Below, in pieces: positions 37,201 through 58,939 of a stretch of 64,000 nt of DNA (its first letter is position 1; every line of letters begins with the position of its first letter). The notes beneath the pieces were generated by a model. The model was not told the DNA's origin and did not search any database. It was given only the letters and a program-made list of their open reading frames with translations. The position numbers and the translations under genes are program-made. Origin of the DNA: an uncultured Bacilli bacterium (GTDB lineage Bacteria; Bacillota_I; Bacilli_A; RF39; UBA660); contig CASTSB010000002.1 of the NCBI GenBank assembly GCA_949451605.1, positions 116,771-180,770 on the forward strand. Direction: 5' to 3'.

Positions 37201-40200
37201 ATGATAGTCAGGCTAATTAAAAAAAGTAAAATTATAAATTTTAATTTACCTACTACTGTATCAGGTAATTATTGGATTACCGATACTGACTATTTAGGAA
37301 ACACCAGAAATCTTATAAATGTAGAAGAATCCGATGGCAAATGGAAAATAAAAAGTGATTTTGAAACTAAAATAATGGCTGGTTCTAGAGAAATAGAATC
37401 AGCATTTCTTAGTGATTATAGTATGTTCTTTTTAAAAATAAATACAGATAACGAATATGTAATTTTATATTGCTCCCCTAATGCGGATAAAAGCATCACC
37501 ACTTTACAAGCAAGTGATAATACAGATTACATAATAGGTAATGATGGAAAGGCCTCAATCAGTTATTTAAACCCTTTAGTATCAAAACAACATGCTAAGT
37601 TAACTCTATCAAATGGTGTATGGTCCATTTTAGATTTAAGTAGCAAATATGGTACTTATGTTAATAATAATGCTGTATTACAACAAACTTTAGAGTTTGG
37701 TGATATAATTTTCATTTTAGGTTTAAGAATTATTATTATGAATAAAACTATAATAATAAATAATATAGGTAATTATGTTTCATTTGATTCAAGTGTTTTT
37801 AAGAAAATGATGCCTATTGTTCAAAAACAAACTTCACAAGATAATCCAGATGAAGAACAAATCGAATTTTTTAAAGAAGATGATTATTTTTATCGTGCAC
37901 CAAGATTTAAAACTAAGATAGAAGATGTTGATATAACTATAGATCCACCTCCAGGTAAGGAAGCAGAAGATGATACTCCAGCTATTTTATCAGTAGGTCC
38001 AATGCTTACAATGGGAATGGTTTCAGGATCAACTGCATTTACCACACTAAATAGCGTTCTAAATGGTAGTATGGATCTTAGCAATGCATATCCAAGTCTT
38101 TTAATGTCAGGTGGAATGCTTGCAACAATGCTTTTGTGGCCAATAATTAATAAAAAATATCAAGCATATAGACATAAGAAAAAAGAAGAATTAAGGCAAT
38201 CAAAATATACAGAATACATTGAGGAAAAAAGATTAAAAATACAATCAGAAATGAAGATTCAAAGACAAATTTTAATCGACAATTATCTTCCAGTTACGCA
38301 AACTAAAGAAATAATTTATAGTAAAAAAAGAAACTTATGGGAACGTGAGTTAGATCAAGATGATTTTTTAGATTTACGATTAGGAATAGGTTCTACTAAT
38401 TTAAAAGGTAAGATAAATTTTCCACAATCACATTTTGCTTTAGAAACTGATAATCTATTAGAACAAGTTTACAAATTAGGTGCAGAATCAACTATGCTTG
38501 AAAATGTACCTATATCTCTTTCCTTCTTAAAAAATAGAATCACAGCTATTATTGGGTCAGCAAGTATAAAAAATCAATTTATAGATGCTTTAGTACTACA
38601 GATGATTACATATCATAGTTACGAAGATTTAAAAATTGTAATAATGACTGATGAAAAAAACGAAAATCGTTGGGAATACTTAAAAATAGTTCCTCATTGT
38701 TGGAATAATGAGAAACAACAAAGATATTTTGTAACAAATTTAGATGAAGCAAAAGAGCTTTCACTTGCCCTAGAGCAACAGATTCAAGCAAGAAGAAATA
38801 AGGAAACAAATGGAAAAATAGAAAAATCTACATTAGATTATCATCATTACAAACCTTACTACATGATAATAACAGATAATTATAAAATGTATCGTGATGT
38901 TGAATTAATTAAAGATATTGCTGAAATGGATATAAACTATGGATTTAGTTTAATGGTGGTAAGTCCAAGATTAATAAATATTCCTAATGAATGTAAAACT
39001 TTTATTAGTATTGGAGATAAAAAGTCAGGAATATTTGAAAATGAATTAGTTTCTAATAAGCAAAAGGAATTTGCTGCTGATTATGATCCAACATTGAACA
39101 TGTATGAATGCTGTAAAATATTAGCTAATATTCCTATTGATATTGCAAAAGAAGATCAAAATTTACCAGCTAGTTTGTCATTTTTGGAAATGTATAACGT
39201 TGGAATGGTAGAACAATTAAATATTCAAAATAGATGGAAAACAAATGACCCAACTAAATCTCTTCAAGCACCTGTTGGTCTTGATAGGCAACATGAACTA
39301 TTCAAACTAGATCTTCATGAAAAATTTCATGGACCACATGGTTTAGTAGCAGGTATGACTGGTTCAGGTAAATCTGAATTTATAATTAGTTACATAGTTT
39401 CTATGGCTATAAACTATCACCCTTATGAAGTATCATTTGTTTTAATTGACTATAAAGGTGGAGGATTAGCAGGAGTATTTCAAAATAAAGAAACTGGAAT
39501 GAAACTTCCACATCTTGCAGGTACTATTACCAATTTAGATACTGTTGAAATGAATCGATCTTTAGCGTCTATTCAAAGTGAGTTAAGAAAACGTCAAAGA
39601 ATTTTTAATGAGGCAAGAGACAAATTAAATGAAAGTACAATTGATATTTATAAATATCAAGGATTATATAGAAAAGGTTTAGTAGATAAACCAGTTTCTC
39701 ATTTATTTATTATTTCTGATGAATTTGCAGAATTAAAAGCTCAAAGACCTGAGTTTATGGATCAACTTATTTCTACTGCACGTATCGGACGTTCTTTAGG
39801 TGTTCACTTAATCCTTGCCACTCAAAAACCAAATGGAGTAGTAAACGATCAAATTTGGTCTAATACTAAATTTAGAGTCTGTTTAAAAGTTCAAGATAAA
39901 TCTGACAGTATGGATATGATAAAAGTTCCAGATGCAGCTTCTTTAAAAAACCCAGGAAGATTTTATTTACAAGTAGGTTACAATGAATTATTTGCACTAG
40001 GACAAGCCGCTTGGGCTGGAGCACAATACTTTCCAACAGAAAAAAGAAAGAAAAAAATTGATCAGTCTATAAGTATCTTAGATAATATAGGTAATACAAT
40101 TAAGTCTTTAGATACTAAACAAAATGAAGTAACAGTTGAATCCAAAGGTGAAGAAATAACTAATATTGTAAAATACATTGTTAATGAAGCTAGTATTGCT

Positions 40201-41787
40201 AATATCTCTATTGACCAATTATGGCTTGATAGAATCCCAGACATCATATTTGTTGAGAATTTAAGAAAAAAATATAATTATGTAATTGAAAAGAATAATA
40301 TAAATCCAATTATAGGAGAATATGATGATCCTGATAATCAAAGACAAGCTCTATTAACATTACCTCTATCAAAAGAGGGAAATACCATCATATTTGGTTC
40401 AGCTGGTAGTGGAAAAGAACTAATGATATCAAGTATTATATATTCAACTATCACAACACATGATTCAAGTGAAGTTAATTTTTATATAATAGACTGTGGA
40501 GCAGAAACTTTATCAGTATTTAAACAAGCCCCACATGTCGGAGAAATATTACTAGTAAATGAAAAAGAAAAAATAGAAAATTTATTTAAAATGATTCTTC
40601 AAACTATTGAAGTTAGAAAAAAAATCTTAGTTGATTACAATGGTTCATATGACTTTTATGTTAATCATGGAGGAAAGGATATGCCTCTTCTTACAATAGT
40701 AATTAATAATGCAGAAGCTTTTTTTGAAAATTATAATGACTATGAAGATGCTATTTCTCAACTAACCAGAGACTGTTTAAAATATGGAGTTATCTTTATT
40801 TTAAGTACAAATGGTCCAAATACATTAAGATACAAAGTAAAACAAAACTTTAGTCAAAATGTTGTTTTACAATTCAATGATCCTTCAGACTATATTTCTG
40901 TAATACCTGGTGTAAGAAAGAAAGAGCCATCTAAAATCTTTGGTAGAGGATTAATGCTTTTAGATAATATTTATGAATTTCAAACTGCTTATCCATATAA
41001 ACAAGATTTAATGACTGATTATATAAAAATAGTTTGTAAAAAGCTTAAAAATATATGTAGTTACCAAGCTAAAAAGATTCCAGTTTTACCTGAAGTCGTA
41101 ACTCTTAATGAAGTAGAAGAATATCTTGGTAATGAAACAACTCTACCAGTTGGTATAGAAAAAGAATCTTTAGATATTTCAACTATTAACTTAAATGAAA
41201 ATATTATGTTTAATATAACAGGAGAAGACATAACTGCAGAACCTGATTTCTTATTTGGAGTAATCAAGTCTGCTTGTAAAATAGCTTCTTCAAGTGTATT
41301 TGTGCTTGACACTCAAGATATTTTAGAAGATATTGATAAAGGTAATATTGATAATTTAGTTTATCAATCAGGAGATGTAAGTCAAGCTTTAGAATCTCTT
41401 GCAGTAACTATTAATACAAACATTGATAATGGTACTTCTAATCCTATAATATGTATGTTAATAGGGCCTATGAATTTTATGAATAAAGCTGAAGAAGCAC
41501 AAAAAAATCAATTCAATTCTATAGTTGAAGTCTCAACACAACAAACAAATATCAAATTTATTATGGTTGAAACAATTAATAACATCAAGACAATAGCCTT
41601 TGAACCATGGTACAAGAATAATACAGACCTATCAGAAGGTGTTTGGATTGGAAATGGAATAGGAAACCAATTTACTCTAAAAGTTACAACAGCCGCAAGA
41701 ATTTTACGAACAGAAATAGAACCAAACTTTGGTTACACTATTCATAAAGGTAAAGCGAAATTAATTAAACTAATTTCAGGAAAATAG
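37201..41787 (+). CDS. essC: type VII secretion system FtsK/SpoIIIE-family ATPase EssC/YukB-like
   Basis: 1528 aa. Two N-terminal FHA-like modules, two TM helices (about aa 255-315), and three P-loop ATPase domains (D1 Walker A GMTGSGKSE, D2 GSAGSGKE, a degenerate D3). Confidence 0.8.
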   Translation: MIVRLIKKSKIINFNLPTTVSGNYWITDTDYLGNTRNLINVEESDGKWKIKSDFETKIMAGSREIESAFLSDYSMFFLKINTDNEYVILYCSPNADKSITTLQASDNTDYIIGNDGKASISYLNPLVSKQHAKLTLSNGVWSILDLSSKYGTYVNNNAVLQQTLEFGDIIFILGLRIIIMNKTIIINNIGNYVSFDSSVFKKMMPIVQKQTSQDNPDEEQIEFFKEDDYFYRAPRFKTKIEDVDITIDPPPGKEAEDDTPAILSVGPMLTMGMVSGSTAFTTLNSVLNGSMDLSNAYPSLLMSGGMLATMLLWPIINKKYQAYRHKKKEELRQSKYTEYIEEKRLKIQSEMKIQRQILIDNYLPVTQTKEIIYSKKRNLWERELDQDDFLDLRLGIGSTNLKGKINFPQSHFALETDNLLEQVYKLGAESTMLENVPISLSFLKNRITAIIGSASIKNQFIDALVLQMITYHSYEDLKIVIMTDEKNENRWEYLKIVPHCWNNEKQQRYFVTNLDEAKELSLALEQQIQARRNKETNGKIEKSTLDYHHYKPYYMIITDNYKMYRDVELIKDIAEMDINYGFSLMVVSPRLINIPNECKTFISIGDKKSGIFENELVSNKQKEFAADYDPTLNMYECCKILANIPIDIAKEDQNLPASLSFLEMYNVGMVEQLNIQNRWKTNDPTKSLQAPVGLDRQHELFKLDLHEKFHGPHGLVAGMTGSGKSEFIISYIVSMAINYHPYEVSFVLIDYKGGGLAGVFQNKETGMKLPHLAGTITNLDTVEMNRSLASIQSELRKRQRIFNEARDKLNESTIDIYKYQGLYRKGLVDKPVSHLFIISDEFAELKAQRPEFMDQLISTARIGRSLGVHLILATQKPNGVVNDQIWSNTKFRVCLKVQDKSDSMDMIKVPDAASLKNPGRFYLQVGYNELFALGQAAWAGAQYFPTEKRKKKIDQSISILDNIGNTIKSLDTKQNEVTVESKGEEITNIVKYIVNEASIANISIDQLWLDRIPDIIFVENLRKKYNYVIEKNNINPIIGEYDDPDNQRQALLTLPLSKEGNTIIFGSAGSGKELMISSIIYSTITTHDSSEVNFYIIDCGAETLSVFKQAPHVGEILLVNEKEKIENLFKMILQTIEVRKKILVDYNGSYDFYVNHGGKDMPLLTIVINNAEAFFENYNDYEDAISQLTRDCLKYGVIFILSTNGPNTLRYKVKQNFSQNVVLQFNDPSDYISVIPGVRKKEPSKIFGRGLMLLDNIYEFQTAYPYKQDLMTDYIKIVCKKLKNICSYQAKKIPVLPEVVTLNEVEEYLGNETTLPVGIEKESLDISTINLNENIMFNITGEDITAEPDFLFGVIKSACKIASSSVFVLDTQDILEDIDKGNIDNLVYQSGDVSQALESLAVTINTNIDNGTSNPIICMLIGPMNFMNKAEEAQKNQFNSIVEVSTQQTNIKFIMVETINNIKTIAFEPWYKNNTDLSEGVWIGNGIGNQFTLKVTTAARILRTEIEPNFGYTIHKGKAKLIKLISGK

Positions 41788-44704: not shown

Positions 44705-45652
44705 ATGATAGAGAAAAAATTCAAGAATTTAGATGAGCAAATTGAAATATTTAAATCAAAAGACCTAATTATCAATGATGAAAAATATGTAAAAGAGATC
44801 TTACTAAGAGAAAATTATTTCTTTATCAATGGTTATAGGCACTTATTCATGAAATCAAAGAAGGATAGGCAATTCATTCATGGAACAACATTTGAAGAAT
44901 TATACAGCTTATTTTTATTTGATAGATCATTTAGAAATATTTTGTTTAAATACTTACTAGTAATCGAAAATAACTTAAAATCAATTACATCTTACCAATT
45001 ATCTAGAAAATATGGATATCGTGAAAGTGATTATTTGAGAGCTAAAAACTTTACACAAGCACCAGATAAACAAAGGCAAATTAATGACCTACTTAGAAAA
45101 ATGAAAAGACAAATAAGAATTAATGGTTCACAACATAGCGCAACTCACCATTATGTATCAAATTATGGATATATTCCTTTGTGGATACTAGTTAAAGTTT
45201 TATCGTTTGGAATAGTAAGTGAAATGTTTTCAATTTTAAAATCTGAAGACCAAAAAGAAATAGCAGAAGTTTATGATATTGAAGTAGATGCTTTAGAGAC
45301 TTATTTACCAATTCTTGCAAATTATAGAAACTTATGTGCACATGAAGATATTTTATATGAAAATAGAACTCAAAAGGAAATAAATAATACTGTATATCAT
45401 CAATTATTAAAAATACCAAAAGAAAATGATGAATATATTCAAGGTAAAAACGATGTTTTTGCTTTAATTATCATTTTAAAACAAATGTTAACTCATGAAG
45501 ATTTTAAAAATATGACATTGGAGCTAGATAATGTTATTCAAACGCTTAATTATAATTTAAATACTATTAAAATAGATATAATTTTAGAAAGAATGGGCTT
45601 CCCATTAAATTGGAAGGAATTAGCAAAAATCGAAAGGAGTGTTGATGAATAA
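44705..45652 (+). CDS. abortive-infection protein, Abi_2 (AbiD/AbiF) family, HEPN-type
   Basis: The N-terminus FKNLDEQIEIFKSKDLIINDEKYVKEILLRENYFFINGY matches Abi_2. HEPN Rx4H motif YRNLCAHED. Confidence 0.7.
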   Translation: MIEKKFKNLDEQIEIFKSKDLIINDEKYVKEILLRENYFFINGYRHLFMKSKKDRQFIHGTTFEELYSLFLFDRSFRNILFKYLLVIENNLKSITSYQLSRKYGYRESDYLRAKNFTQAPDKQRQINDLLRKMKRQIRINGSQHSATHHYVSNYGYIPLWILVKVLSFGIVSEMFSILKSEDQKEIAEVYDIEVDALETYLPILANYRNLCAHEDILYENRTQKEINNTVYHQLLKIPKENDEYIQGKNDVFALIIILKQMLTHEDFKNMTLELDNVIQTLNYNLNTIKIDIILERMGFPLNWKELAKIERSVDE

Positions 45653-47010
45653 TGCCAGCAAGAAAAAAAATAGAAGAAGCTGAAGAAAAAGAAATTAAAG
45701 TTAGTGAAGTAACAGAAGAATTTAAAAAAGAACTAATAGAAGAAATAAAAAAGGAAATGCAAGAAGATACAAATGTAGAAGAAACTGAATCTAAAAAAGT
45801 CGAAGTTATTGAAGATGATGAAGACGATTTCTACAATGATTATAGAAATTATAAAGAAATGAGAGAAGAATTTAATAATAAAAGAAATTATAAAAGAGAA
45901 AAAAATCCTTCAAGTTTTAGATTAGGATTTATTATGGTATTTTCATTTATAGTTGGTGCAATGGTAATGATAGGACTAATTAAATATACACCTCTTTTAC
46001 AAGAAGTTATTGGTTCAACTGATAATACTGTAATCACAAAAAATAAAACACAAGTCTATGAAAAAGGTTCTCTTGCTCCATCTGTTGAAAAAATTTATGA
46101 TGCAGTAGTAGTTATTCAATGTTATAAGAATGACCAATTAGCAAGTACAGGAACAGGTTTTGTATATAAAACAGATAATAAATATGGATATATTTTAACT
46201 AATGCCCATGTTGTTTCAGAAATGGAAAAAGTAAATGTAACTTTTACAAATGATGAAGAAGCAGAAGTAAAAGTTTTAGGAAGTGACTCTTATTTAGATT
46301 TAGCAGTTCTTAGAGTTGACAAAAAATATGTTTCTCTTGTTGCTAATATTGGTTCATCTGAAGATGTTAAAATAGGAGATTCTGTATTTACTGTTGGTTC
46401 TCCAATGGGATATGATTATCGTGGTAGTGTAACATCAGGAATTTTATCAGGAAAAGATAGAATGGTTGCAGTAAGTGTTTCTAACTCTCAAATGAATGAT
46501 TGGGTTATGAGAGTATTACAAATAGATGCATCAATCAATCCTGGAAATAGTGGTGGTCCTCTTCTAAATATTAACGGGGAAGTAATTGGAGTATGCTCAA
46601 TGAAACTTGTTGATGATGAAATAGAAGGTATGGGATTTGCAATTCCAATAGAATATGCCATGTCACATGTTGAGCAATTAGAAAAAGGTGAAGATATAGA
46701 ATGGCCAGTTTTAGGCGTTTCTATGGCAAATATTACTGATACAGGTACTTTATATAGAAATAATATAAGAGTAGATGATAACATCAAAGAAGGTGTAGTT
46801 GTAATTAGTACAACAGATAATAGTGCAGCAAAAGAAGCAGGTTTAAAAGCTGGAGATGTTATTACTAAGTTAGGTGGAAATAGTACTAAAAATATTGCTT
46901 ATCTAAGATATGAATTATATCAACATTCTGCAGGTGATGAAGTAGAAATTGAATATATTCGTGATGGAAAAACTCATAGTGTTAAAGTAAAACTTGGAAA
47001 AAGCTCTTAA
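45652..47010 (+). CDS. htrA: HtrA/DegP-family serine protease (trypsin-like + PDZ), membrane-anchored
   Basis: Acidic N-terminus, one TM helix, catalytic His (TNAHVV), GNSGGPL Ser motif, and a C-terminal PDZ domain. Confidence 0.85.
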   Translation: MPARKKIEEAEEKEIKVSEVTEEFKKELIEEIKKEMQEDTNVEETESKKVEVIEDDEDDFYNDYRNYKEMREEFNNKRNYKREKNPSSFRLGFIMVFSFIVGAMVMIGLIKYTPLLQEVIGSTDNTVITKNKTQVYEKGSLAPSVEKIYDAVVVIQCYKNDQLASTGTGFVYKTDNKYGYILTNAHVVSEMEKVNVTFTNDEEAEVKVLGSDSYLDLAVLRVDKKYVSLVANIGSSEDVKIGDSVFTVGSPMGYDYRGSVTSGILSGKDRMVAVSVSNSQMNDWVMRVLQIDASINPGNSGGPLLNINGEVIGVCSMKLVDDEIEGMGFAIPIEYAMSHVEQLEKGEDIEWPVLGVSMANITDTGTLYRNNIRVDDNIKEGVVVISTTDNSAAKEAGLKAGDVITKLGGNSTKNIAYLRYELYQHSAGDEVEIEYIRDGKTHSVKVKLGKSS

Positions 47011-48057: not shown

Positions 48058-48086
48058 TTGCAAAAATCACCAATTTATGGTATAAT
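48058..48086 (+). promoter_or_regulatory. consensus sigmaA promoter for the tandem-HEPN gene
   Basis: TTGCAA, 17-nt spacer, TATAAT. Confidence 0.6.
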
Positions 48087-48119
48087 ATGCACTATCGATC
48101 AGTAAAAGGGGTACGGTCT

Positions 48120-49943
48120 ATGTATAAAGAAACTGAAGAAGAAAGAGAGTTAAGAAGAAAAAAGATTCTTAATGAATTAAATACTTTTATAATCTCTAAC
48201 ATTTCTTATACAAAATACTTAGAAACTCTAGGAAATATTAATGACCTAGACTCTTTTTGCAATGTAGAAAAACTACAAGTAATTTATGCATCATTTATGA
48301 TGATGTTGTGGAAAGATGAATATATAAAAAAAGATAAAAGTAGACTTATATCAACATTATCTGATGAATTATTAGATGATATTGTTTCAATTGTCGCAGA
48401 ACAAAGAAATGATAATTCATGGAAAATTGGTGACTTAATATTTGAAAATAATTATGATGTCATAGATGTTATAAAAAATAAGCTTGCTCATGGTGATTAT
48501 ATAATTAATGAGAATTATTTAGAATTAGACATTGATAAGAAAAAAGGCTATATTTTAATTGACAACTTAGTAGATTTTACAAATGAATTAGCAGTTAAAT
48601 GGGAAAAAATTAAATCTAAAGGAGAAAATATTCAAAACTTTGTAACTGTAAAAATACCTAGTAAAGATTTAAAAGGTAAAATAAATAATTTTAAAGATGT
48701 TAATAAATATTTAAAATATTTAGGTTATCTAGAATTATCAGATAAACCATATCCAGGTTATGAAAGAAATAGAGAATATACTGAAACTATTGAAGAATTT
48801 ACCTCATCACTTATAAGTAATATGAATGGTAAAAATCCTAATTATATAGACGTCCTTAAAATGTATTTATTATCTATGCAGAAATTAGGTATAGATTTAA
48901 ATATTAAGTCCACTCCTGCTAATATGCTACCTAATTATGAAAAAGTTTTAGAATGTTTTAGAAAAAATAAAACTTTTTATAGAGAAGAAAACTTAGAAAA
49001 GCAAATTAACTATCTTGCCTATACTTTATATGAAAAAAACAATAACATTGCACCAAAGAAAAATATTACCGAAGGAATAATTTCTAATCAAAAGTTTTTA
49101 ATTGAATTAGCCAAAGATAATCAAACATCTTTAGTAGATTTACTAAACGCAAAGGACAAGGTTTCTCTTCCAGAAAAGAGTAAGTTAGATAAAAGTATTT
49201 TAACTTCATATCTAGTAGGTTTTTATGTAGTTTATATTTATGGATTAGATGAAATTTATACTGCTGATGAAAGAGACCATATAGATAAGATTTATAATCA
49301 TAAAATGTTTGATTTTTCTAAATTAGATTTATCCAGTATAAAACCAAATATTTTAAGTATAGATAAAGATTTTAGTTGTTTTAATGCTCAATTAAATAAG
49401 AATATCCAAACCAATAAAATAAATTTAGATAAGTATTATAAGTTAAGAAGAGATGCGATTTCTATTCGAAAAAAGATAGATGAATATAAAAATAGTCCAG
49501 AAAAAGATTTATCTAAATTAAAAAATGCTTTAAAAAAGCAAAATGAAATGATTAGTAAAGCACTTTATGAATACTCGGCTAATAAAATGAAAATTCATTT
49601 TGAAGAGGAATTTATAAAGAATGACTTTGAAAAATATAAGGAAAATAGATCGATAATTGAGCATATTAGAAATAGTATTTCACATGGAAATGTTAAAATA
49701 AACTACATTGGTGGATATGGTAGTAGAGAAGACTCAACTATTTACTTTCAAGATAGAGATAACGAAAGAATAACTTTTGAAGCAGAATTGTCAACAAAGG
49801 AATTCACAACACTTATTACAGGTAAAAATATAAAAGAAGTTTGTGGATATCTTGATACTAATACCCAAAATTATAATAAAGAAATTATGAATGAGGAAAA
49901 AGAAATTAATATAATTCCTAAACAAAAATATAAAAGATTATAA
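48120..49943 (+). CDS. hypothetical 607-aa protein with two HEPN-like motifs (tandem HEPN candidate)
   Basis: Internal duplicated motif: IKNKLAHGDYIIN (N-terminal third) and IRNSISHGNVKIN (C-terminal), that is [KR]N..[AS]HG[DN]..IN. The second copy is a canonical HEPN Rx4H. ATG 48120 follows RBS aaagggg. Confidence 0.55.
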   Translation: MYKETEEERELRRKKILNELNTFIISNISYTKYLETLGNINDLDSFCNVEKLQVIYASFMMMLWKDEYIKKDKSRLISTLSDELLDDIVSIVAEQRNDNSWKIGDLIFENNYDVIDVIKNKLAHGDYIINENYLELDIDKKKGYILIDNLVDFTNELAVKWEKIKSKGENIQNFVTVKIPSKDLKGKINNFKDVNKYLKYLGYLELSDKPYPGYERNREYTETIEEFTSSLISNMNGKNPNYIDVLKMYLLSMQKLGIDLNIKSTPANMLPNYEKVLECFRKNKTFYREENLEKQINYLAYTLYEKNNNIAPKKNITEGIISNQKFLIELAKDNQTSLVDLLNAKDKVSLPEKSKLDKSILTSYLVGFYVVYIYGLDEIYTADERDHIDKIYNHKMFDFSKLDLSSIKPNILSIDKDFSCFNAQLNKNIQTNKINLDKYYKLRRDAISIRKKIDEYKNSPEKDLSKLKNALKKQNEMISKALYEYSANKMKIHFEEEFIKNDFEKYKENRSIIEHIRNSISHGNVKINYIGGYGSREDSTIYFQDRDNERITFEAELSTKEFTTLITGKNIKEVCGYLDTNTQNYNKEIMNEEKEINIIPKQKYKRL

Positions 49944-49998: not shown

Positions 49999-50499
49999 AT
50001 GCACATTATAAATCATATAAGCCAAATTTACTTACTGAATAATAAATATTTTGTAATAGATTATAACAATAATGAAAAATTAGTATTAAATATAAAAAAA
50101 GGTAAAGAAGAAAACACTAATAATATAAAGGCTAATAATAAAAAAGTTATTTATCAAAATGGAAATGATTACCAGGAAAGTTTTGAATTATGTGAAATAG
50201 AAAGCATTACATTAAGAAGTAACGTAGAACTTTTAAATAATACTAATCAAAAGATAATCTCTTCTCCTTACTTAATTGAGATTAAGGATACAGAAAACAA
50301 CTCTTTCTTTATCGATGCTTGTCTAAATCAGACTTATACTAGAAAAAATCATTATATTTTAAAGTTATATTGTAACTCAAATGAAGATTATATTTTTAGT
50401 TTAAATAAGAAAATAGTTCCTTTCAATATTTTAATCAAGCTAAATATTTGTAATTTAATAAGTCCACTTCTTGCGATAGATGAAGAAGATATAGTATAA
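49999..50499 (+). CDS. hypothetical protein
   Basis: 166 aa. It is followed by two hairpin terminators (atccaca..tgtggat; aagaacc..ggttctt). Confidence 0.4.
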   Translation: MHIINHISQIYLLNNKYFVIDYNNNEKLVLNIKKGKEENTNNIKANNKKVIYQNGNDYQESFELCEIESITLRSNVELLNNTNQKIISSPYLIEIKDTENNSFFIDACLNQTYTRKNHYILKLYCNSNEDYIFSLNKKIVPFNILIKLNICNLISPLLAIDEEDIV

Positions 50500-50608
50500 A
50501 GTTTTATCCACAAATCCTGTGGATATTTTATTTTAAATAATGACATTTATTATAAACAAAAAAGAACCATTAGGTTCTTTTAATCATATCTTATAATAGG
50601 TGATTTAT

Positions 50609-50887
50609 ATGAATAATTTAGTTGGAGTAATAGTAGACGCTGGACATGGTGGAAATGACCCAGGTGCTGTAGCTGGAAATTTAAAAGAAAAAGATTTAAC
50701 CTTAAAAGCATCAAAATATATGTATGACAGATTAAGAGAATTAGGAATAGATGCAGAGCTTACAAGAGATTCAGATACTTCTCTTCCAAAATCAGAAAGA
50801 ATTAAAAAAGTATTAAGTTTATACAATAATAATCCTAATGTAATTTTAGTTGCTAATCATATTAACGCAGGTGGTCAGGACACGTAA
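50609..50887 (+). pseudogene. N-acetylmuramoyl-L-alanine amidase (Amidase_3, CwlC/endolysin-like), 5' part of a gene split by element insertion
   Basis: MNNLVGVIVDAGHGGNDPGAVAGNLKEKDLTLK...VANHINAGG, then QDT-stop read from element DNA. It continues in frame at 63873. Confidence 0.7.
50869..50874. repeat. attL core (aggtgg) of the integrated element
   Basis: The same hexamer occurs at 63872-63877. Joining the two flanks restores ...HINAGG/EGAEIVY. Confidence 0.5.
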
Positions 50888-50997
50888 TATGTGATTAAAA
50901 TATGGTAGCTGTGTATAACTTAATAAGCTTCTTGTTTTACTGGAATATATAGACAAAAAAATTATATGCTGTTAAATTATAAATAGGAGTTGTTATA

Positions 50998-51210
50998 ATG
51001 AAAATAAAATGTAAACAATGTGATAGCATTATAGAAAATAAAAATATTAATAAAGAAATATGGTGCTCTTGTAAAAATATAGGCATTTTTAATGATTATA
51101 TTTTATATGGAAATAAAAATAAATTAAAGGAAAAGAGTTATGAAGATTTAACACCTAAAAAATCATTAGAAGAAGTAGTAAATGAATTAAATAAGTTAGA
51201 AAATAATTAA
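50998..51210 (+). CDS. small Cys-rich (zinc-ribbon-like) protein
   Basis: CKQCDS...CSCKN. RBS aggag upstream. Confidence 0.45.
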   Translation: MKIKCKQCDSIIENKNINKEIWCSCKNIGIFNDYILYGNKNKLKEKSYEDLTPKKSLEEVVNELNKLENN

Positions 51211-51264
51211 ATAGAAAGTTGTGGAAACACAATTTTTTTAATGCTAGAAAAGAGGAAAAAATAT

Positions 51265-51564
51265 ATGAAAATAAAATCAATAAAAAAAGAAGAAGGATAT
51301 ACAGTGATGAGTAACTATCATTTTAAAGACAGAAGGTTAAGCTTAAAAGCAAAAGGATTACTTTCATTAATGTTATCATTACCAGATAATTGGGATTTTT
51401 CAATAATGGGATTAACTAGTATTTGTATTGAAAGCAGAGATACAATCAGAAAAATTATAAATGAATTAAAGATTAATAAGTATCTTAAAGTAGTAGAAAA
51501 TAGAGATAAGAATGGAAGATTTTATTATGAGTATATAATATATGAAAAACCATACGATGATTAA
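51265..51564 (+). CDS. mobile-element-associated helix-turn-helix protein
   Basis: NYHFKDRRLSLKAKGLLSLMLSLPDNWDFSIMGL...SRDTIRKIINELKINKYL...KNGRFYYEYIIYEKP is a pattern common in Firmicutes phage/ICE regulatory and replication proteins. Confidence 0.55.
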   Translation: MKIKSIKKEEGYTVMSNYHFKDRRLSLKAKGLLSLMLSLPDNWDFSIMGLTSICIESRDTIRKIINELKINKYLKVVENRDKNGRFYYEYIIYEKPYDD

Positions 51565-51751
51565 TCCATAGTACCTTTACGGTTATATGGATTTCCGTAT
51601 TCGGTTTTACATGTAGAATAGATAATAAAAAATAAAGTAATAAAACTAATAGTTAAAGATGTTAAAGGAAAAATGAAACAAATTAATAAGAAAAAATAAA
51701 TTTATTATGAAAAAATATGATATAATTATTATGGAAGTGTAGGTGGTAAAA

Positions 51752-52627
51752 ATGAAGAAAAAACAAAATTTATTGTTACAACCAGTTTTAAAATGGGCTG
51801 GAGGGAAAAGACAATTAATTCCTCAGTTGGAAAAATTTTTTCCAAAAAAATTTACTACCTATTATGAACCTTTTATAGGTGGAGGAGCAGTATTATTCCA
51901 TTTACAACCATCAAAGGCAGTAATTAACGATTTCAACGAGGATTTAATAAATTGCTATAGGTGTATAAAAGATAATTTGGATGAACTGATAGAAAAATTA
52001 AAATATTATGAGGCAAAAAATGATTCAGAGAGTTATTATGAAATAAGAGCTATTGATAGGACTGAAGAATATAAAAGTTGGAGTCCAGTAGAACGAGCAG
52101 CAAGGTTAATATATTTAAATAGAACATGTTATAACGGTTTGTTTAGAATGAATAGTGCTGGTCAATTTAATTCTCCATTTGGGTCTTACAAAAATCCTTG
52201 TATATGTAATGAACCTGTCTTAAGAGCAATAAATAAATATTTTAATGAAAATGAAATAGAGTTTAGATCAGGAGATTTTTATGATGCATGTATTGATGCT
52301 CCAAAGGGATCATTTATATATTTAGATCCTCCTTACGATCAATATGATGAACAAGTTAATTTTGTTGGTTATACAAAAAATGGTTTTTCAAGAACTGATC
52401 AAGAGCGTTTAAAGAATATGTGTGATGAATTAATTGAGCGTGGATGCTATATTATGGTAAGCAATTCAAAAACTCCTTTTATTGTTAATTTATATAGTGA
52501 TACAACAAAATATATAACTTATACAATTAATACGGTGAATGCAAGGAGAAATATAAATAGTAATGCTCAAAAGCGTGGTGAAGTTGAGGAGGTTTTGATT
52601 ATTGGAAAATTGGATATCAAAGAATAA
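51752..52627 (+). CDS. Dam-family N6-adenine DNA methyltransferase (D12 class)
   Basis: LKWAGGKRQL, EPFIGGGAV, DPPY and NRTCYNGL motifs. ATG 51752 follows RBS aggtgg. Confidence 0.85.
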   Translation: MKKKQNLLLQPVLKWAGGKRQLIPQLEKFFPKKFTTYYEPFIGGGAVLFHLQPSKAVINDFNEDLINCYRCIKDNLDELIEKLKYYEAKNDSESYYEIRAIDRTEEYKSWSPVERAARLIYLNRTCYNGLFRMNSAGQFNSPFGSYKNPCICNEPVLRAINKYFNENEIEFRSGDFYDACIDAPKGSFIYLDPPYDQYDEQVNFVGYTKNGFSRTDQERLKNMCDELIERGCYIMVSNSKTPFIVNLYSDTTKYITYTINTVNARRNINSNAQKRGEVEEVLIIGKLDIKE

Positions 52628-53900
52628 TAAAGCATGGAATGAACTGTTTGAAAGATTTAATATTATTAATGCAATAGAAGGAAATGGTTTTTTTGAAATT
52701 ACTGCTGATCAAATTAAAGAATCAGGAAGAGAGCCAAGATTAATGACTAAGTTTGATAGCAGTGAAAATTTACCAACAATTTTTGCAGAAAATAACCTAG
52801 CAATATTGCCAATTAAACGTGGCTCATATATTATAGGAAAATTTCAAAATTATCAAACTGTTGAATTAAATAATGATTTAGATGTTGAAACTAAATATTT
52901 ACCAGATTATATTTCAACTATTGATTACAGTAATATTCCAAGTGAAGCAATATCGTTAAATTCTGCATATATCTCTGGAATGATTGAAGATATTGTTGGA
53001 GAAGAAGTTGTACCTACTATACAAGGAAGAATGGGAACTGGTGAATTCAATTATCAAATATCATTAAAAGATAATAATAAATTTGATGTAAGTGTTCAAA
53101 ATTCTCAAATGGAAATAGACGGTAGTTATGAGGGAATAAGTAAATTTGTAATATTCGAAGCAAAAAATCATTACATGAAAGATTTCATAATAAGGCAATT
53201 ATATTATCCGTATAAAGTTTGGAAAAAAGTTACGCATAAAGAAATAATTCCAATTATGTTAATTAAGCATGATAATATATTTAATTTTTTTATCTATGAA
53301 TTTTTAGATGAAAATAATTATAATAGTATAAGATTAAAGAAAATCAAAAGATATATTTTAGATGAAATATATAATCCAATCGAAGTTGTTGACATACAAA
53401 ATATTATGAATCAAGTTGAATTTGTTAAAGAAGATAATGTCCCTTTTCCACAAGCAAATTCTTTTTATAGAGTTTTAGATTTAATCAATGAATTAAATAA
53501 TCAAGAATTATCTGCAAGTGATATTGCAGACATTTATGAATTTGATATTAGACAAGCAAATTATTATTTAGCTGCTGCACAATATTTAGGCTTAGTTGTG
53601 AAAGATAAAAACTACAAATTATCTGATCATGGAAAAAGTATAATGCAAATGAACCATAAAAATAAGAATTTAGCAATTATTAGTATTATTTTATCTCACA
53701 AACCTTTTTACTGTGCACTTGAGCAATATTTAACAAATTTTGAATTTGATTATTCAGAAATAGCAAAAGTTATTTATGAAAATAGAGATGAAATCAATTC
53801 AACTGGAACGGCAGAAAGAAGAACAAGTACTGTAATTGCTTGGGTTAAATGGATTATGGAATTAACAACTGTTTTTGAAAGAAATCCTTTTGATGAATAG
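52602..53900 (+). CDS. putative restriction endonuclease partner of the Dam-family methyltransferase
   Basis: 432 aa. Overlaps the MTase 3' end by 26 nt. No motif recognised. The assignment rests on its context. Confidence 0.4.
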   Translation: MENWISKNNKAWNELFERFNIINAIEGNGFFEITADQIKESGREPRLMTKFDSSENLPTIFAENNLAILPIKRGSYIIGKFQNYQTVELNNDLDVETKYLPDYISTIDYSNIPSEAISLNSAYISGMIEDIVGEEVVPTIQGRMGTGEFNYQISLKDNNKFDVSVQNSQMEIDGSYEGISKFVIFEAKNHYMKDFIIRQLYYPYKVWKKVTHKEIIPIMLIKHDNIFNFFIYEFLDENNYNSIRLKKIKRYILDEIYNPIEVVDIQNIMNQVEFVKEDNVPFPQANSFYRVLDLINELNNQELSASDIADIYEFDIRQANYYLAAAQYLGLVVKDKNYKLSDHGKSIMQMNHKNKNLAIISIILSHKPFYCALEQYLTNFEFDYSEIAKVIYENRDEINSTGTAERRTSTVIAWVKWIMELTTVFERNPFDE

Positions 53901-54025
53901 AATATTAAATGGAGAAAGAAACTCCATTTTTATTTTAGTTCTTTATAATAATTGCAAAATATTTTAAAAATATTTTGCAATTATTATTTATTTGTGATAT
54001 TATATAGTTGATTTTGGAGGTGTCT

Positions 54026-54244
54026 ATGGAAACTATAAAACAACAAAACTTTAAAAGGATTGCTGAAAATAGAATAAATAAAATTGTTGATTTAATTTCA
54101 AAACTTCATAATCTATCAAATTCATCATTTTATGAATATACAGATGAACAAATAGATAAAATGTTTGATATTATCCAAAAAGAATTGGATAGACAAAAAG
54201 AAGAATTTAAAAAGAAAGGAAAAAATAGAAAAATAGAATTGTAG
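54026..54244 (+). CDS. small protein, first gene of the GHKL operon
   Basis: 73 aa with RBS ggaggtg upstream. Largely helical and charged. Confidence 0.45.
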   Translation: METIKQQNFKRIAENRINKIVDLISKLHNLSNSSFYEYTDEQIDKMFDIIQKELDRQKEEFKKKGKNRKIEL

Positions 54245-54254
54245 GTGTAGTAAG

Positions 54255-56183
54255 ATGTTTAATGAATTATTTTTTAAAGATAAGCCAAAATGGAAATTTA
54301 TTGAAAACAACTATGGTAATGATAACGGTCTAGACTCTACTGACATGGAAACTTTTAAAAAAGATCCTATTGCCTCATTGGCTAGGGAATCATGTCAAAA
54401 TTCAGTAGACGCGCAAAAGAGCGAAAATGCCGTTTTAATTCAGTTTAAAGTGTTTTATATGGATACAAAAGAAATTCCCGGTATAAACGATTTGATTAAT
54501 GAAATTACAGCATGTAGAAATTCAAATGTAGAGGGTAGTAGACAATATATTCAATTTAATAATATGCTTGAATATTTAAAAAATAAAAGTATTCCTTGCT
54601 TAAGAATTAGTGACTTCAATACAAAAGGATTAGAAGGAGTACGAAATAATTCAAGAGACAAGGCCTTTTATAGATTAACTAAAGGAAATGGTCAAACAAC
54701 AAAAGAAAATGGAATTAATGGTGGTTCAAAAGGTATTGGTAAATTTGCCTCATTTGTTAATAGTCAAATCCAAACTGTTTTCTATTCTACGTTAAATATG
54801 GATAACGAGAAAGGTTTTTTGGGGATTTCTAAATTAGCTTCACGACCTTTAGATAATGAACTATTGTGTACAACAGGATATGGGTACTTTTCAAGAACTG
54901 AAAAAGTTTTACCAATATTAGATGATTTAAATCTAGATAAAAACTTTATGAGAACTGAAACGGGAACAGATATATATATTTTAGGATTTAAAATTGAAGA
55001 ATCATGGAAAAAAGACATAATAACTAAAGTTTTAGATAGTTTTATGTGTGCTATACATTTTGGTAAATTAGGTGTTGAAGTAGATGATGTATTATTAACA
55101 AAAGATACATTAAAAGATATTGTTTATAATGAAAAATATATTAATGGTGTGAAAGATAAAAGAAGAATTATAAGTCAATATATTCTTTTAAATAATGATT
55201 ATGTTCACAAAAAAGAATTTAACATTAATGGATATGGAAATTTTGAAGTTTATGTTAGGGAATTTAATAGAGAAGACGAGTATTTAGCTACAAAGAAATG
55301 TTCAATGATTAGATATCCTTATATGAAAATAAAAGATTTTAATGTGGCTTGCGCAGTACCATGTTCTGCCCTATGTATAATACCAGAAAACAAATTAAAT
55401 AAAACACTTATCGATATAGAAAATCCACAGCACACTGACTGGGAATATCTTCGTTTAAATCCTGATGACAGAAAATTAATGCGAAAATTATTGAATGAAT
55501 TAGAAAGAACTATATCCGAATATGCAAATGAATGTTTATTGAATGGTAAAAATGAAGAGATAGATATGGAAGGTGCTGGGGATTTATTACCAGATTTAGA
55601 TAATTATATTGATGTTTCATTATCTAATTCGGAAGTTGAATCTAATAAGCCGCGTATAATAAGTGTTGTACAAAATAAAGTAAAAAATACTTTTGGTGAA
55701 GTAGAAGATGAAAACGCTATTTCTAATCAGCCAGATATTGGAACACATATTGATGAAGATGTTGATGATGTTTCTCCTATACCTGAAGGTCAAAATGAAC
55801 ATTCTGGAGCAGATGTACATGATTCTCAAAATGAAACAGGATATTCTTCAGACGGAAACGATGAAATAATGAAAGAAGTTTCTTTATCTGGAATTAAATC
55901 TACCATCTTTATTTTAAATAAAGAGTTAGGTAAATATGCAATTAGTTTTAATTCAATATATGATGAAAAAAATTGCGAATTAGAAATGTATTATCTTGAT
56001 GATTCTGACAATAAGTATAAAGCTTTAATAAAGTCTTGTACTATTAATGGTGAAGATGGAAAAGTAGAAAACGGAAAAATTGTAAATATGAATCTAAAAA
56101 AAGATACAATGTATAAAATAGAAGTTCATACAAATTTAAATGATATTTATGCCTGTGAGGTGAGATTATATGCGATTAGGTAA
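54255..56183 (+). CDS. GHKL-superfamily (MutL/Hsp90/MORC-like) ATPase-domain protein
   Basis: N-box-like ASLARESCQNSVDA, a G1-like DFNTKGLEG, a G2-like GINGGSKGIGKFASF. An acidic linker (aa ~440-520) and a C-terminal domain follow. Confidence 0.6.
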   Translation: MFNELFFKDKPKWKFIENNYGNDNGLDSTDMETFKKDPIASLARESCQNSVDAQKSENAVLIQFKVFYMDTKEIPGINDLINEITACRNSNVEGSRQYIQFNNMLEYLKNKSIPCLRISDFNTKGLEGVRNNSRDKAFYRLTKGNGQTTKENGINGGSKGIGKFASFVNSQIQTVFYSTLNMDNEKGFLGISKLASRPLDNELLCTTGYGYFSRTEKVLPILDDLNLDKNFMRTETGTDIYILGFKIEESWKKDIITKVLDSFMCAIHFGKLGVEVDDVLLTKDTLKDIVYNEKYINGVKDKRRIISQYILLNNDYVHKKEFNINGYGNFEVYVREFNREDEYLATKKCSMIRYPYMKIKDFNVACAVPCSALCIIPENKLNKTLIDIENPQHTDWEYLRLNPDDRKLMRKLLNELERTISEYANECLLNGKNEEIDMEGAGDLLPDLDNYIDVSLSNSEVESNKPRIISVVQNKVKNTFGEVEDENAISNQPDIGTHIDEDVDDVSPIPEGQNEHSGADVHDSQNETGYSSDGNDEIMKEVSLSGIKSTIFILNKELGKYAISFNSIYDEKNCELEMYYLDDSDNKYKALIKSCTINGEDGKVENGKIVNMNLKKDTMYKIEVHTNLNDIYACEVRLYAIR

Positions 56184-57078
56184 AAAAGTTCCACCATATC
56201 CAATTTTGAATAAATCTCTTAATATGAGCTCATACAAAAATTCAAATTTTTCTTTTAGTTATGAATTGGAAGAAACAAAGGAATTGTTTATAATTAAAAA
56301 TGCCAAAATTGAAACGGATAGTGGAGATTTGCTGAAGTATTTTAATCTTCAAAAATTAAAAGCAGTAGTGATTGTGGAATGTTCTTCTACTGTTTATAGA
56401 AATAAATTTGAAATATCTATAAATCCTGTTGATATAGAAATTCCAATAAAAGATTTAAATGATAAAGTTGAAATATCTTGTTTTGTATATGCAATAGAAG
56501 ATATTGAAAATTATTCAAGCAAAGATATGCAAGATGTTTATCAAGGATATTCTTTTATGATAGAAAAATATAGTATGTTTGCTGTTGATGATGGTATTAC
56601 GATGAAAATAGAATATGATGATAAAGAAGATAATAAAGTAGCATCGATATTTTCTGTTATAAAAAGTTTTGATCAAAATTTAAATAATATGAAAGTTGAA
56701 CTAACTGATAGAAAGATAAAAATAATATTACCAGAAAAATCTTTTGAGTATTATGATGCACTTAAAGATAAAGAACCTTTTCAAAGTATATTTTTTTCAA
56801 TACTTGTTATTCCCTCTTTAACTTATGCATTTAGTGAGATTCAAAAGCTTCCAAATGAAACAGAAATAGATGATATTGTAGATAAATATAGCTGGTTTAA
56901 ATCAATTGTAGCTAGTTACAAAAAATTATATAAAGTTGATCTAGATTATGAAACTTTTAAGCAACTTGTACCACTAGAGTTAGCACAAGGTTTAATGAAT
57001 AATTGTACTACTAGTTCATTTGATGATTTTTATAAAGCTGTTACAAATATCATTCCTAATGAAATGGAGGATGAATAA
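56170..57078 (+). CDS. hypothetical protein (GHKL operon gene 3)
   Basis: 302 aa. Overlaps the upstream gene by 14 nt. No motif recognised. Confidence 0.45.
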   Translation: MRLGKKVPPYPILNKSLNMSSYKNSNFSFSYELEETKELFIIKNAKIETDSGDLLKYFNLQKLKAVVIVECSSTVYRNKFEISINPVDIEIPIKDLNDKVEISCFVYAIEDIENYSSKDMQDVYQGYSFMIEKYSMFAVDDGITMKIEYDDKEDNKVASIFSVIKSFDQNLNNMKVELTDRKIKIILPEKSFEYYDALKDKEPFQSIFFSILVIPSLTYAFSEIQKLPNETEIDDIVDKYSWFKSIVASYKKLYKVDLDYETFKQLVPLELAQGLMNNCTTSSFDDFYKAVTNIIPNEMEDE

Positions 57079-57079
57079 T

Positions 57080-57904
57080 ATGAATAAAACTATTAATATT
57101 TCTTTTATGACAGATGAAGCATTAGAAACTTTGAGAGAAAATAGTGATAGAGTATCAGAGTATATTAAATCAAATAAACTTGATTCTAGTTGGATCCATG
57201 AACTTTATAGTGGAAAGGTATATGATTTAAAGAAGGAAAAAATAAATGACTTTGAACTAAAAACTTCCTTAAATGATAATTATAAAGAAGTAGAACTTGA
57301 TAATGCTGTAATATTATATGAATCATTAAAAGATTTGCCTAGATGTATTATTACAGATGAAAGATTTTGGGCTTGGATTAATCTAAATAAATGCTATAAA
57401 GCTACAACTCAAGCAATGCCAATTAAGTCGTCATCAACTTTTAAAAACATGTGGTTATTTACGCAAGGAAAGAGAAGAGGTATTTTCTTTGGAGCAAATT
57501 CTAGATTATATTTTTGGACAGAATTAACAGTAGATGATGAATCATTAGAGGATAAATATTTATATACAAGATTTGTATTTGAAAATCATGAGAGAATAAG
57601 ACAATTAACATGGAGATCAAATTCAAACAATAAACATATTGTATTAAATGTGGTAAAAGCTGAAAAGATGCTATATGATAAATATGCGAAGAATTCTGAA
57701 TACATGGAGGCATTTAATAAATGTGAAAGAGGTGTTGGAACTCGTAATATTTATACTGCTATTTCAAAATATTTATCATTATATGGAAGTGTAAGAGTAT
57801 TAGATGTTATATCAGATGAAGATTTGCAAAATTTCATCTATAATAAACTTGAAGAAATATTATTTGAAGTACAGAAAAATAATATGGAAATTTTTAATAT
57901 GTAA
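57080..57904 (+). CDS. hypothetical protein (GHKL operon gene 4)
   Basis: 274 aa. ATG 57080 follows RBS ggagga and sits 1 nt after the upstream stop. Confidence 0.45.
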   Translation: MNKTINISFMTDEALETLRENSDRVSEYIKSNKLDSSWIHELYSGKVYDLKKEKINDFELKTSLNDNYKEVELDNAVILYESLKDLPRCIITDERFWAWINLNKCYKATTQAMPIKSSSTFKNMWLFTQGKRRGIFFGANSRLYFWTELTVDDESLEDKYLYTRFVFENHERIRQLTWRSNSNNKHIVLNVVKAEKMLYDKYAKNSEYMEAFNKCERGVGTRNIYTAISKYLSLYGSVRVLDVISDEDLQNFIYNKLEEILFEVQKNNMEIFNM

Positions 57905-57917
57905 GGAATAATTTCTA

Positions 57918-58925: not shown

Positions 58926-58939
58926 TAAAAGGTGATAAA

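Follow-up and report, generated by a model that had tools for sequence, protein, structure and literature searches.

A predicted single-chain tandem-HEPN protein family of uncultured gut Bacilli

HEPN enzymes assemble a single composite RNase site, which is metal-independent, from a pair of Rx4-6H motifs on two domains. In most families the site is built by homodimers, such that two subunits are normally needed for each active site. Cas13 is the famous one-chain case, in which the site is intramolecular, and CnuE is a second, predicted example. Proteins are assigned to the superfamily by the Rx4-6H motif, by a polar residue (N, D, or H) after the Arg, and by the position of the motif at the end of helix 3. 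The fold is a four-helix up-down bundle that can carry an insert between helices 2 and 3, and a connector leads from the motif to helix 4 (PMC3710099). Here we describe a protein of 607 amino acids (aa), called HEPN2, that carries two such motifs. It is encoded on the plus strand at 48120..49943 of a 64,000-nucleotide (nt) stretch of DNA from an uncultured Bacilli bacterium (contig CASTSB010000002.1), hereafter the window.

Several described systems offer points of comparison. CnuE of the type III-A CoCoNuT systems combines a winged helix-turn-helix (wHTH) domain, a coiled coil, and two HEPN domains, and is predicted to target RNA (PMC11090510). The DARNA protein (PD-T7-3) has an N-terminal HEPN domain of ~160 aa with the motif R117x4H122 and a non-catalytic sensor domain; it forms a dodecamer and, once activated, cleaves tRNA and arrests growth. 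The HEPN pEK499_p136 family (PF18736) is associated with restriction-modification (R-M) and other conflict genes (PMC3710099, Anantharaman et al. 2013). When set beside these systems, HEPN2 is classified as an architectural variant within the HEPN superfamily that lies outside any named system. Since constraint is highest at its two motifs, which share a single chain, and no partner accompanies it, a single-chain pseudo-dimer RNase is the best-supported model. On the sequence evidence laid out below, we rate as about evenly balanced the fuller proposal that HEPN2 would be a guide-less, Cas13-like enzyme of this kind, serving as a one-gene defence or stress effector.

The N-terminal motif, K119-N-K-L-A-H124-G-D, spans residues 119-126 (48474..48497, plus strand), where the family consensus reads R-N-K-L-A-H-G-D. 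The C-terminal motif, R517-N-S-I-S-H522-G-N, spans residues 517-524 (49668..49691, plus strand). A preliminary description of this DNA had reported two motif copies about 400 aa apart, the second of them a canonical Rx4H, and both observations hold: KNKLAHGD and RNSISHGN are separated by 398 residues, and R517-N-S-I-S-H522 conforms to the Rx4H pattern. When all six reading frames of the window were searched (127,996 residues), the pattern [KR]N..[AS]HG[DN] was found only twice, both times in HEPN2. Given the composition of the protein, a single copy is expected by chance 4.5e-5 times per protein, and a pair about 1e-9 times.

An alignment of 153 non-redundant family members reveals that these motifs include the top conserved columns of the whole protein. 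H522, R517, and H124 are each retained in 98% of members, G125 and G523 in 97%, N518 in 95%, and R119 in 93%. For the N-terminal motif the counts are 143 R and 8 K at the first position, 135 N, 8 H, and 8 D at the second, 150/153 for H124, and 149/153 for G125. The C-terminal motif has R in 150/153, followed by 145 N, 4 D, and 2 H, with H in 150/153 and G in 148/153. The residue after the Arg is thus confined to N, H, or D in both motifs, as is typical of HEPN proteins, and Lys replaces the Arg in the N-terminal copy of the window protein. Homologs lacking the motif had been named as grounds for abandoning the HEPN proposal, and both motifs prove to be essentially invariant.

The Lys in the N-terminal copy had been taken as a possible sign of a regulatory pseudo-site. 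The alignment does not support this idea: Arg is the residue typical of the family (143/153), and the Lys found in 8/153 members occurs only in the sub-clade to which the window protein belongs. Judging from this distribution, Arg is ancestral at position 119 and Lys is the variant of one clade. Members of the sub-clade retain the Asn, His, and Gly of the motif, so that the site is otherwise intact, which speaks against its being a decayed pseudo-site. K119 therefore appears to be a conservative change fixed in one sub-clade, and the N-terminal site is more likely to be still functional than to be a decoy.

Scans of the whole protein against Pfam, NCBIfam, PADLOC, and PHROGs yielded nothing useful, and a HEPN signal emerged only when the modules were scanned separately. 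For this purpose, residues 1-165 (the N-terminal HEPN-like module, 48120..48614, plus strand) and residues 415-595 (the C-terminal HEPN-like module, 49362..49904, plus strand) were taken from 29 family members each. Among the N-domains, the Pfam families that lead by member count are all HEPN families: HEPN_RiboL-PSP (6 members, best E 3.7e-7) and HEPN_MAE_28990 (4 members, with alignments 90-110 residues long), followed by Abi_2 (3, best E 0.004), HEPN_Apea (2), and HEPN_LA2681 (1). Among the C-domains, 21/29 match HEPN pEK499_p136, with a best E of 1.1e-6. The C-domain of the window protein aligns with positions 53-138 of the 152 in this profile at E 2.7e-5, although its score of 24.4 bits falls short of the gathering score of 26.6. 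A precomputed annotation of an identical protein, made with a newer model, likewise lists a ‘weak’ PF18736 match. By these profile comparisons, pEK499_p136, matched by the C-module alone at a score under the cut-off, is the nearest curated family. Other C-domain matches are weak and involve HEPN_MAE_28990, HEPN_LA2681, HEPN_Apea, and PADLOC CARF_HEPN. The weak PADLOC matches of the family's modules (CARF_HEPN, the HEPN2 region of Cas13b, a reverse transcriptase-associated HEPN, and Csx1) all fall in HEPN regions.

The two modules also resemble each other. A profile-profile comparison with hhalign matched the N-module to the C-module with a probability of 89.5% and E 2e-6 over 44 columns, which run from the last part of the motif helix through the following strands into the beginning of the helix after them. 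Controls in which either module was compared with the middle region gave E of about 0.4, and HEPN2 is therefore internally duplicated. A further HEPN hallmark, a conserved acidic residue in helix 2 within an Ex3[KR]-like pattern, is present in the N-module: position 66, within predicted helix 2 (49-68), is D or E in 148/153 members, with K65 in 128/153 and K71 in 95/153. No clear equivalent of this acidic residue was identified in the C-module.

The full-length AlphaFold2 model has a mean predicted local distance difference test score (pLDDT) of 86.4 and a predicted template modelling score (pTM) of 0.84, and a model of the N-domain has a pLDDT of 80.4. In the N-module, predicted helices at 6-35 and 49-68 are followed by a beta/alpha insert and a helix at 111-123 that ends in the motif, after which come a three-stranded beta-meander (128-146) and a helix (147-160). 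The C-module is predicted to begin with a long antiparallel helical hairpin (420-456 and 465-521), the second helix of which ends in the motif, and to continue with a beta-meander (525-558) and a helix (568-590). In both modules, a predicted helix thus carries the motif at its C-terminal end, where HEPN proteins place Rx4-6H, and leads through a connector into another helix.

Between the modules lies a middle region of mixed alpha/beta structure, residues 166-414 (48615..49361, plus strand). It has no match in Pfam, NCBIfam, PADLOC, or PHROGs, nor in PDB sequence searches. The most conserved positions of the protein outside the HEPN motifs are found here, namely F368, Y374, and the segment FDFSKLDL (residues 397-404; nt 49308-49331) just before the coiled-coil hairpin, and these may serve the middle domain in ligand binding, in regulation, or as an interface. 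The overall architecture is accordingly drawn as a HEPN module, a middle domain of ~250 aa, a coiled-coil hairpin, and a second HEPN module, and we consider it probable, with good confidence, that both end modules are of the HEPN type.

Relatives of HEPN2 are numerous. A profile search of 1.84 billion cluster representatives returned 410 clusters (at 50% identity) at E<=1e-3, of which 189 reach E<=1e-30, and a word-indexed search returned 76 relatives. Almost all members are 545-610 aa long and match from end to end. The family is unnamed in the source databases. All 25 loci (25/25) taken from species-representative genomes belong to metagenome-assembled genomes (MAGs) of uncultured ‘Bacilli’, ‘Mollicutes’, or ‘Tenericutes’ from the gut or rumen. 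Six members (P0138, P0166, P0176, P0185, P0202, and P0216) are larger, at 713-744 aa, and are extended by helical segments at both ends, of ~40-80 aa N-terminally and ~130-170 aa C-terminally. When the N-domain alignment was used for a profile search of a set of 5.8 billion proteins, mostly fragments of the HEPN2 family were recovered, together with one useful lead. This protein, P0239 (L048, 5001-5855), is a distant stand-alone relative of 284 aa with an identical IRNKLAHGDY motif and a weak match (E 6.7e-3). Its gene lies between two SLFN_AlbA_2 genes, one of which has a Dnd-associated domain, and downstream from AAA_15/AAA_23 and HNH_2 genes. P0239, whose setting is clearly one of defence, may be related to the N-module and have a single HEPN domain.

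If the single-chain pseudo-dimer model is correct, HEPN2 could work as follows. The N- and C-modules would pack together within one chain, as the HEPN pair of Cas13 and the subunits of HEPN homodimers do, and [R/K]119, H124, R517, and H522 would create a composite, metal-independent RNase site whose cleavage products would bear 2',3'-cyclic phosphate ends. Because an enzyme that is always on would be toxic, its activity must be gated. The protein would be held off until the middle domain or the coiled coil senses a cue, and the gate could be either the 250-aa middle domain, in which F368, Y374, and FDFSKLDL are near-invariant, or the long helical hairpin that leads into the C-terminal motif. 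Upon activation, cellular or phage RNA would be cut and growth would be arrested, either as abortive infection or as a stress response. Whether this activity would serve phage defence is a somewhat closer call, to which we assign slightly less than an even chance, and a lineage-specific role in RNA metabolism seems unlikely.

The genomic surroundings bear on these choices, and the evidence that they give on the preliminary suggestion of a standalone abortive-infection RNase, itself plausible, is mixed. In the window's species, the genes occur in the order EssC, three small genes, a SpoIID-like gene, Zn-PLPC, Abi_2, HtrA, CorA, HEPN2, an open reading frame of 166 codons (ORF166), and an amidase gene, and the order EssC-PLPC-Abi_2-HtrA-(CorA)-HEPN2 is kept in ten other species-level loci. 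HEPN2 is the most diverged member of this syntenic block, with 32-41% identity vs 55-82% for most neighbours; only HtrA (36-71%) overlaps this range. Its ratio of nonsynonymous to synonymous substitution rates (dN/dS) is 0.085 when measured against the closest ortholog, which is 88% identical (L035), and the corresponding values are 0.043 for Abi_2, 0.033 for CorA, and 0.15 for PLPC. HEPN2 is under purifying selection, and we rejected the notion that its fast evolution reflects positive selection on the strength of this value of 0.085 in a close pair.

The Abi_2/AbiD gene at 44705-45652 (Pfam Abi_2, E 2.5e-43; PADLOC AbiD, E 4e-61) has the sequence RNLCAH, starting at residue 208, and its end lies 2.47 kb before HEPN2, in agreement with the preliminary placement of such a gene 2.5 kb upstream. 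Its conservation is unusually high for a gene of the ‘abortive infection’ type: identity between species is 75-82%, compared to mostly 55-70% for the other syntenic genes of those species. It is always found between Zn-PLPC and HtrA (45652-47010), its stop codon overlaps the start of htrA, and no non-coding RNA was detected adjoining it. Abi_2 looks vertically inherited and is possibly a domesticated HEPN protein. A further observation concerns ATPases of the FtsK/SpoIIIE type (EssC-like, of type VII secretion), which are found 0-6 kb from HEPN2 homologs in three otherwise different contexts: the window (37201-41787), L031 (8914-13512), and L025 (5518-7722). [quoted passage not shown]

The stretch just downstream from HEPN2 (50600-61518 in the window) is a hotspot for the integration of defence islands. 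In the window, the amidase/LysM gene (N-acetylmuramoyl-L-alanine amidase) is cut after ~95 codons (50600-50887), and the island that follows carries a type II R-M pair (51743-53900), PDC-M33 A/B/C (54255-57904), and Gabija GajA/GajB (58904-61518). The cargo at the same site differs among loci: L002 carries DUF6119, Fic, MazE, and a type I R-M system, L035 carries an SLFN-like helicase together with a MazG-like gene, and the amidase is intact (412 aa) in L003 and L004. At the start of the window's island, an ORF of 107 aa (51241-51564) matches phage replication-initiator and DnaD-like HTH families (best PHROG E 3e-19) and is probably left over from the mobile element that brought in the island.

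HEPN2 itself can be lost. At L015 (7944-9686, from the MAG ‘uncultured Mollicutes UMGS532’), the homolog ends after 213 aa and is followed by two opposite-strand IS3-like transposase ORFs, and we therefore conclude that it was inactivated by an insertion sequence (IS). A metagenome scan for the presence or absence of HEPN2, seeded with Abi_2, returned mostly contigs that were too short; the only informative one was the more distant L045, in which HEPN2 is absent downstream of Abi_2-HtrA. Among 16 distant loci there is no recurrent neighbour of HEPN2, and the genes found beside the distant homologs include both housekeeping genes (SMC, fmt/rpsO/pnp, and a class I tRNA synthetase) and conflict genes (Fic and NOV_C).

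The reading frame of HEPN2 ends at 49943, and its longest form, from 48087, would encode 618 aa. We rejected the 48087 start: it has no ribosome-binding site, coincides in part with the -10 box, and is not the one used by the homologs, all of which start at a Met equivalent to ATG 48120. The ATG at 48120 is a credible start because a ribosome-binding site, AAAAGGGG (48104..48111, plus strand), lies 8 nt upstream, because the homologs begin at the equivalent Met, and because gene callers agree. The same 607 aa were called in four other assemblies, and an identical product is encoded on 23 other contigs. The AAAGGGG of the ribosome-binding site is kept in L035, L006, and L037.

Upstream from the gene, at 48058..48086 on the plus strand, is a promoter-like element composed of TTGCAA (-35, 4/6), a spacer of 17 nt, and a TG-extended TATAAT (-10, 6/6). 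It had been called a perfect sigmaA promoter, which overstates a match at 10/12 positions with a -35 box of 4/6. Promoter-like matches are not enriched in the window, whose G+C content is 24%: 25 were observed vs 33.8 expected from shuffles. The position of the element is conserved in L035 (an 88%-identical homolog) and L037 (55%), and the element is absent from L005, L006, and L009, where the gene directly adjoins corA. The gaps flanking HEPN2 in homolog loci are 16-64 nt, with 16 nt separating it from corA in L005, and no terminator is predicted between corA and HEPN2.

ORF166 (49999..50499, plus strand) is the accessory gene downstream, and an intrinsic-terminator-like hairpin predicted at 50505..50525 (plus strand), with an 8-bp stem followed by a T-run, closes the HEPN2-ORF166 unit. 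ORF166 has no family match in Pfam, NCBIfam, PADLOC, or PHROGs scans. Its orthologs are found in L035 (66% identity, dN/dS 0.27) and L006 (41%), and it is absent from L005, from L007-L013, and from all distant loci. From this comparison, ORF166 is to be regarded as a real gene, yet no conserved partner of HEPN2. The suggestion that it might act as a partner or antitoxin was thus rejected, given that it occurs only in the nearest relatives and L006 and is missing from most syntenic loci.

One alternative is that the R-N-x3-H-G modules adopt a different fold, such as a nucleic-acid- or nucleotide-binding unit on a coiled-coil scaffold, and that the Pfam matches are driven by the motif. A number of results weigh against a HEPN assignment in this way. 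The structural check named in the preliminary description, made here by searching PDB with Foldseek from confident models, retrieved no HEPN structure: the full model found neither HEPN nor Cas13 (best E 1.1), and the N-domain model found no HEPN (best E 0.49, with a template modelling score below 0.3). Nothing significant was found for the full model among the viral structures of BFVD, and across these structure searches the only matches were coiled coils or others with low template modelling scores. The three-stranded beta-meander after each motif lies outside the canonical description of a four-helix HEPN. The window protein is below the Pfam gathering score for every HEPN family, and PF18736 is not among its full-length matches at E<=1. 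Among PADLOC models nothing credible matches it (CARF_HEPN only, E 0.03 for the full length and 0.0098 for the C-domain), and phmmer and profile searches against PDB sequences yielded coiled-coil noise only, whether made with the whole protein, with the N- or C-domain, or with the full alignment. It does not match the Abi_2 profile (Pfam PF07751). When the HEPN2 modules were aligned by hhalign with the neighbouring Abi_2 orthologs, motif fell on motif alone and not significantly (E 0.037 and 0.32), and no specific relationship to the adjacent Abi_2 gene is therefore claimed. Nevertheless, each module independently yields matches, which together represent at least six HEPN families, several of the alignments extend well beyond the motif (86-110 residues), and pEK499_p136 recurs across most C-domains. 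The N/H/D second position, the acidic residue of helix 2, and the location of the motif at a helix end all fit HEPN, and Foldseek is weak on small divergent helical bundles. On balance, we judge a non-HEPN fold to be quite unlikely and the presence of two HEPN modules to be probable; the earlier proposal of two HEPN domains is largely supported by sequence profiles for both modules, whereas the structural match is missing. Two HEPN motifs in one chain also invite the idea of a miniature Cas13-like effector whose guide RNA is encoded elsewhere or unrecognised, and two distant N-domains do weakly match the HEPN2 region of Cas13b (E 1e-3 and 2e-3). The window protein itself lacks a Cas13 match, however, and to our knowledge it is smaller than any known Cas13. 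As had been reported earlier, no CRISPR array is present: the window holds no CRISPR-like repeat array anywhere, and also no Rfam family. The homolog loci offer no non-coding space flanking HEPN2 in which a cis-encoded RNA could reside, and neither Cas1/Cas2 nor any other conserved neighbour accompanies the gene. We therefore rejected a guided nuclease, which we consider extremely unlikely.

If HEPN2 is a tandem-HEPN RNase, it might still serve ends other than conflict. One such explanation is a lineage-specific housekeeping or stress RNase, made of two HEPN modules, for RNA processing or turnover in gut Bacilli with small genomes. Much of the genomic evidence can be read in this manner and counts against a defence role: HEPN2 is syntenic across many species, holding its fixed position in the block described above; its dN/dS is unremarkable and signifies purifying selection; it appears to be co-transcribed with corA in several species; it is outside the mobile islands and is present with and without them; and its distant homologs often stand beside housekeeping genes. 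No antitoxin or partner is found at its loci, and eukaryotic HEPN enzymes such as Las1 perform housekeeping functions. On the other hand, a housekeeping gene would not be expected to be broken by an IS (L015), missing from an equivalent Abi_2-HtrA locus (L045), far more diverged than nearly all of its syntenic neighbours, variable in location between lineages, and confined to one group of uncultured Bacilli. Along with the border of the defence hotspot and the AbiD gene upstream, the divergence, the IS break, the absence from L045, and the setting of the distant relative P0239 make up a conflict-type context, and we consider the housekeeping explanation unlikely. A different kind of conflict gene would be a toxin, either paired with ORF166 as antitoxin or immunity protein or exported as an RNase by a T7SS. 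The pairing would be compatible with the distance of only 55 nt between the genes, with their shared transcription unit ahead of a terminator, and with the fast evolution of ORF166; export would be compatible with EssC 6 kb upstream and with the FtsK/EssC-like ATPases that adjoin homologs in L031 and L025 too. However, HEPN2 keeps both motifs at the many loci that lack ORF166, and this phyletic pattern largely refutes the toxin-antitoxin interpretation. The N-terminus of HEPN2 is a conserved module and not of the LXG/WXG type, and conservation runs along the whole length of the protein with no polymorphic C-terminal toxin domain, for which reasons an LXG-type T7SS toxin was rejected. Taken as a whole, a toxin of either sort seems very unlikely. 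The preferred reading of HEPN2 as a guide-less, single-chain RNase can be elaborated into a single-gene immune or stress effector of ~600 aa with Cas13-like geometry, a conserved sensor domain, and a coiled-coil lever, found only in uncultured gut Bacilli with small genomes and vertically retained beside the hotspot. We offer this composite picture tentatively, as one whose parts may well not all prove correct.

Should the single-chain model be true, HEPN2 would represent a third tandem-HEPN family, much smaller than the others and guide-less, of independent origin, and its existence would mean that fusion of two HEPN domains arose repeatedly. About 400 clusters at 50% identity would be added to the candidate RNA-targeting defence or stress effectors. 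The protein would provide a compact scaffold in which activation is built into the same polypeptide, and possibly a minimal one for engineered RNases. It would also mean that certain poorly studied, uncultured Bacilli of the human and animal gut maintain two HEPN genes, a very conserved AbiD-like gene and HEPN2, at a fixed site beside a defence-island hotspot. For the present, comparative analysis makes HEPN2 a well-defined and experimentally tractable candidate.

Among known systems, the single-gene HEPN effectors DARNA/PD-T7-3, ApeA, and AbiD/AbiF (Abi_2) resemble HEPN2 in their economy. R117x4H122 of DARNA occupies almost the same position as K119x4H124 of HEPN2, and some N-domains of the HEPN2 family weakly match the Abi_2 and Apea Pfam models. 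In contrast to HEPN2, which has its second HEPN in cis, these proteins have one HEPN domain and create their site by homo-oligomerisation, and none of the anti-phage system models in PADLOC-DB v2, including those for PD-T7-3/DARNA and ApeA, credibly matches HEPN2. HEPN_RiboL-PSP (PF18735) and HEPN_MAE_28990 (PF18737) give the best profile matches of the N-module, although these are seen in a minority of members that does not include the window N-domain, and both are single-domain families. The likeness to pEK499_p136 covers the helix that ends in RNxxxHG and the region after it in the C-module. HEPN2 scores below the cut-off of that family and adds a second HEPN, a 250-aa middle domain, and a coiled-coil hairpin, and the operon links of pEK499_p136 to R-M, ART/Macro, NamA, and Pgl are not conserved neighbours of HEPN2.

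CnuE is similar in being a non-CRISPR protein with two HEPN domains and a coiled coil. However, CnuE belongs to McrBC-type operons with a helicase, and no such genes occur at any HEPN2 locus; its second motif is a shortened RxH, whereas both HEPN2 motifs are Rx4H; and HEPN2 lacks a wHTH domain, with no HTH match in Pfam. Cas13 proteins are about 775-1,400 aa long, compared to 607 aa for HEPN2. They also differ from HEPN2 in that its loci are devoid of a CRISPR array, cas genes, and space for a guide, in that HEPN2 has no significant sequence or fold match to Cas13 (PADLOC and Foldseek against PDB), and in that the region between its modules is unlike recognised domains. By analogy, the likeness to Cas13 would lie in the arrangement and outcome of catalysis: two Rx4H HEPN motifs in one polypeptide, from which one composite RNase site is expected, and an activation that would lead to RNA cleavage and dormancy.

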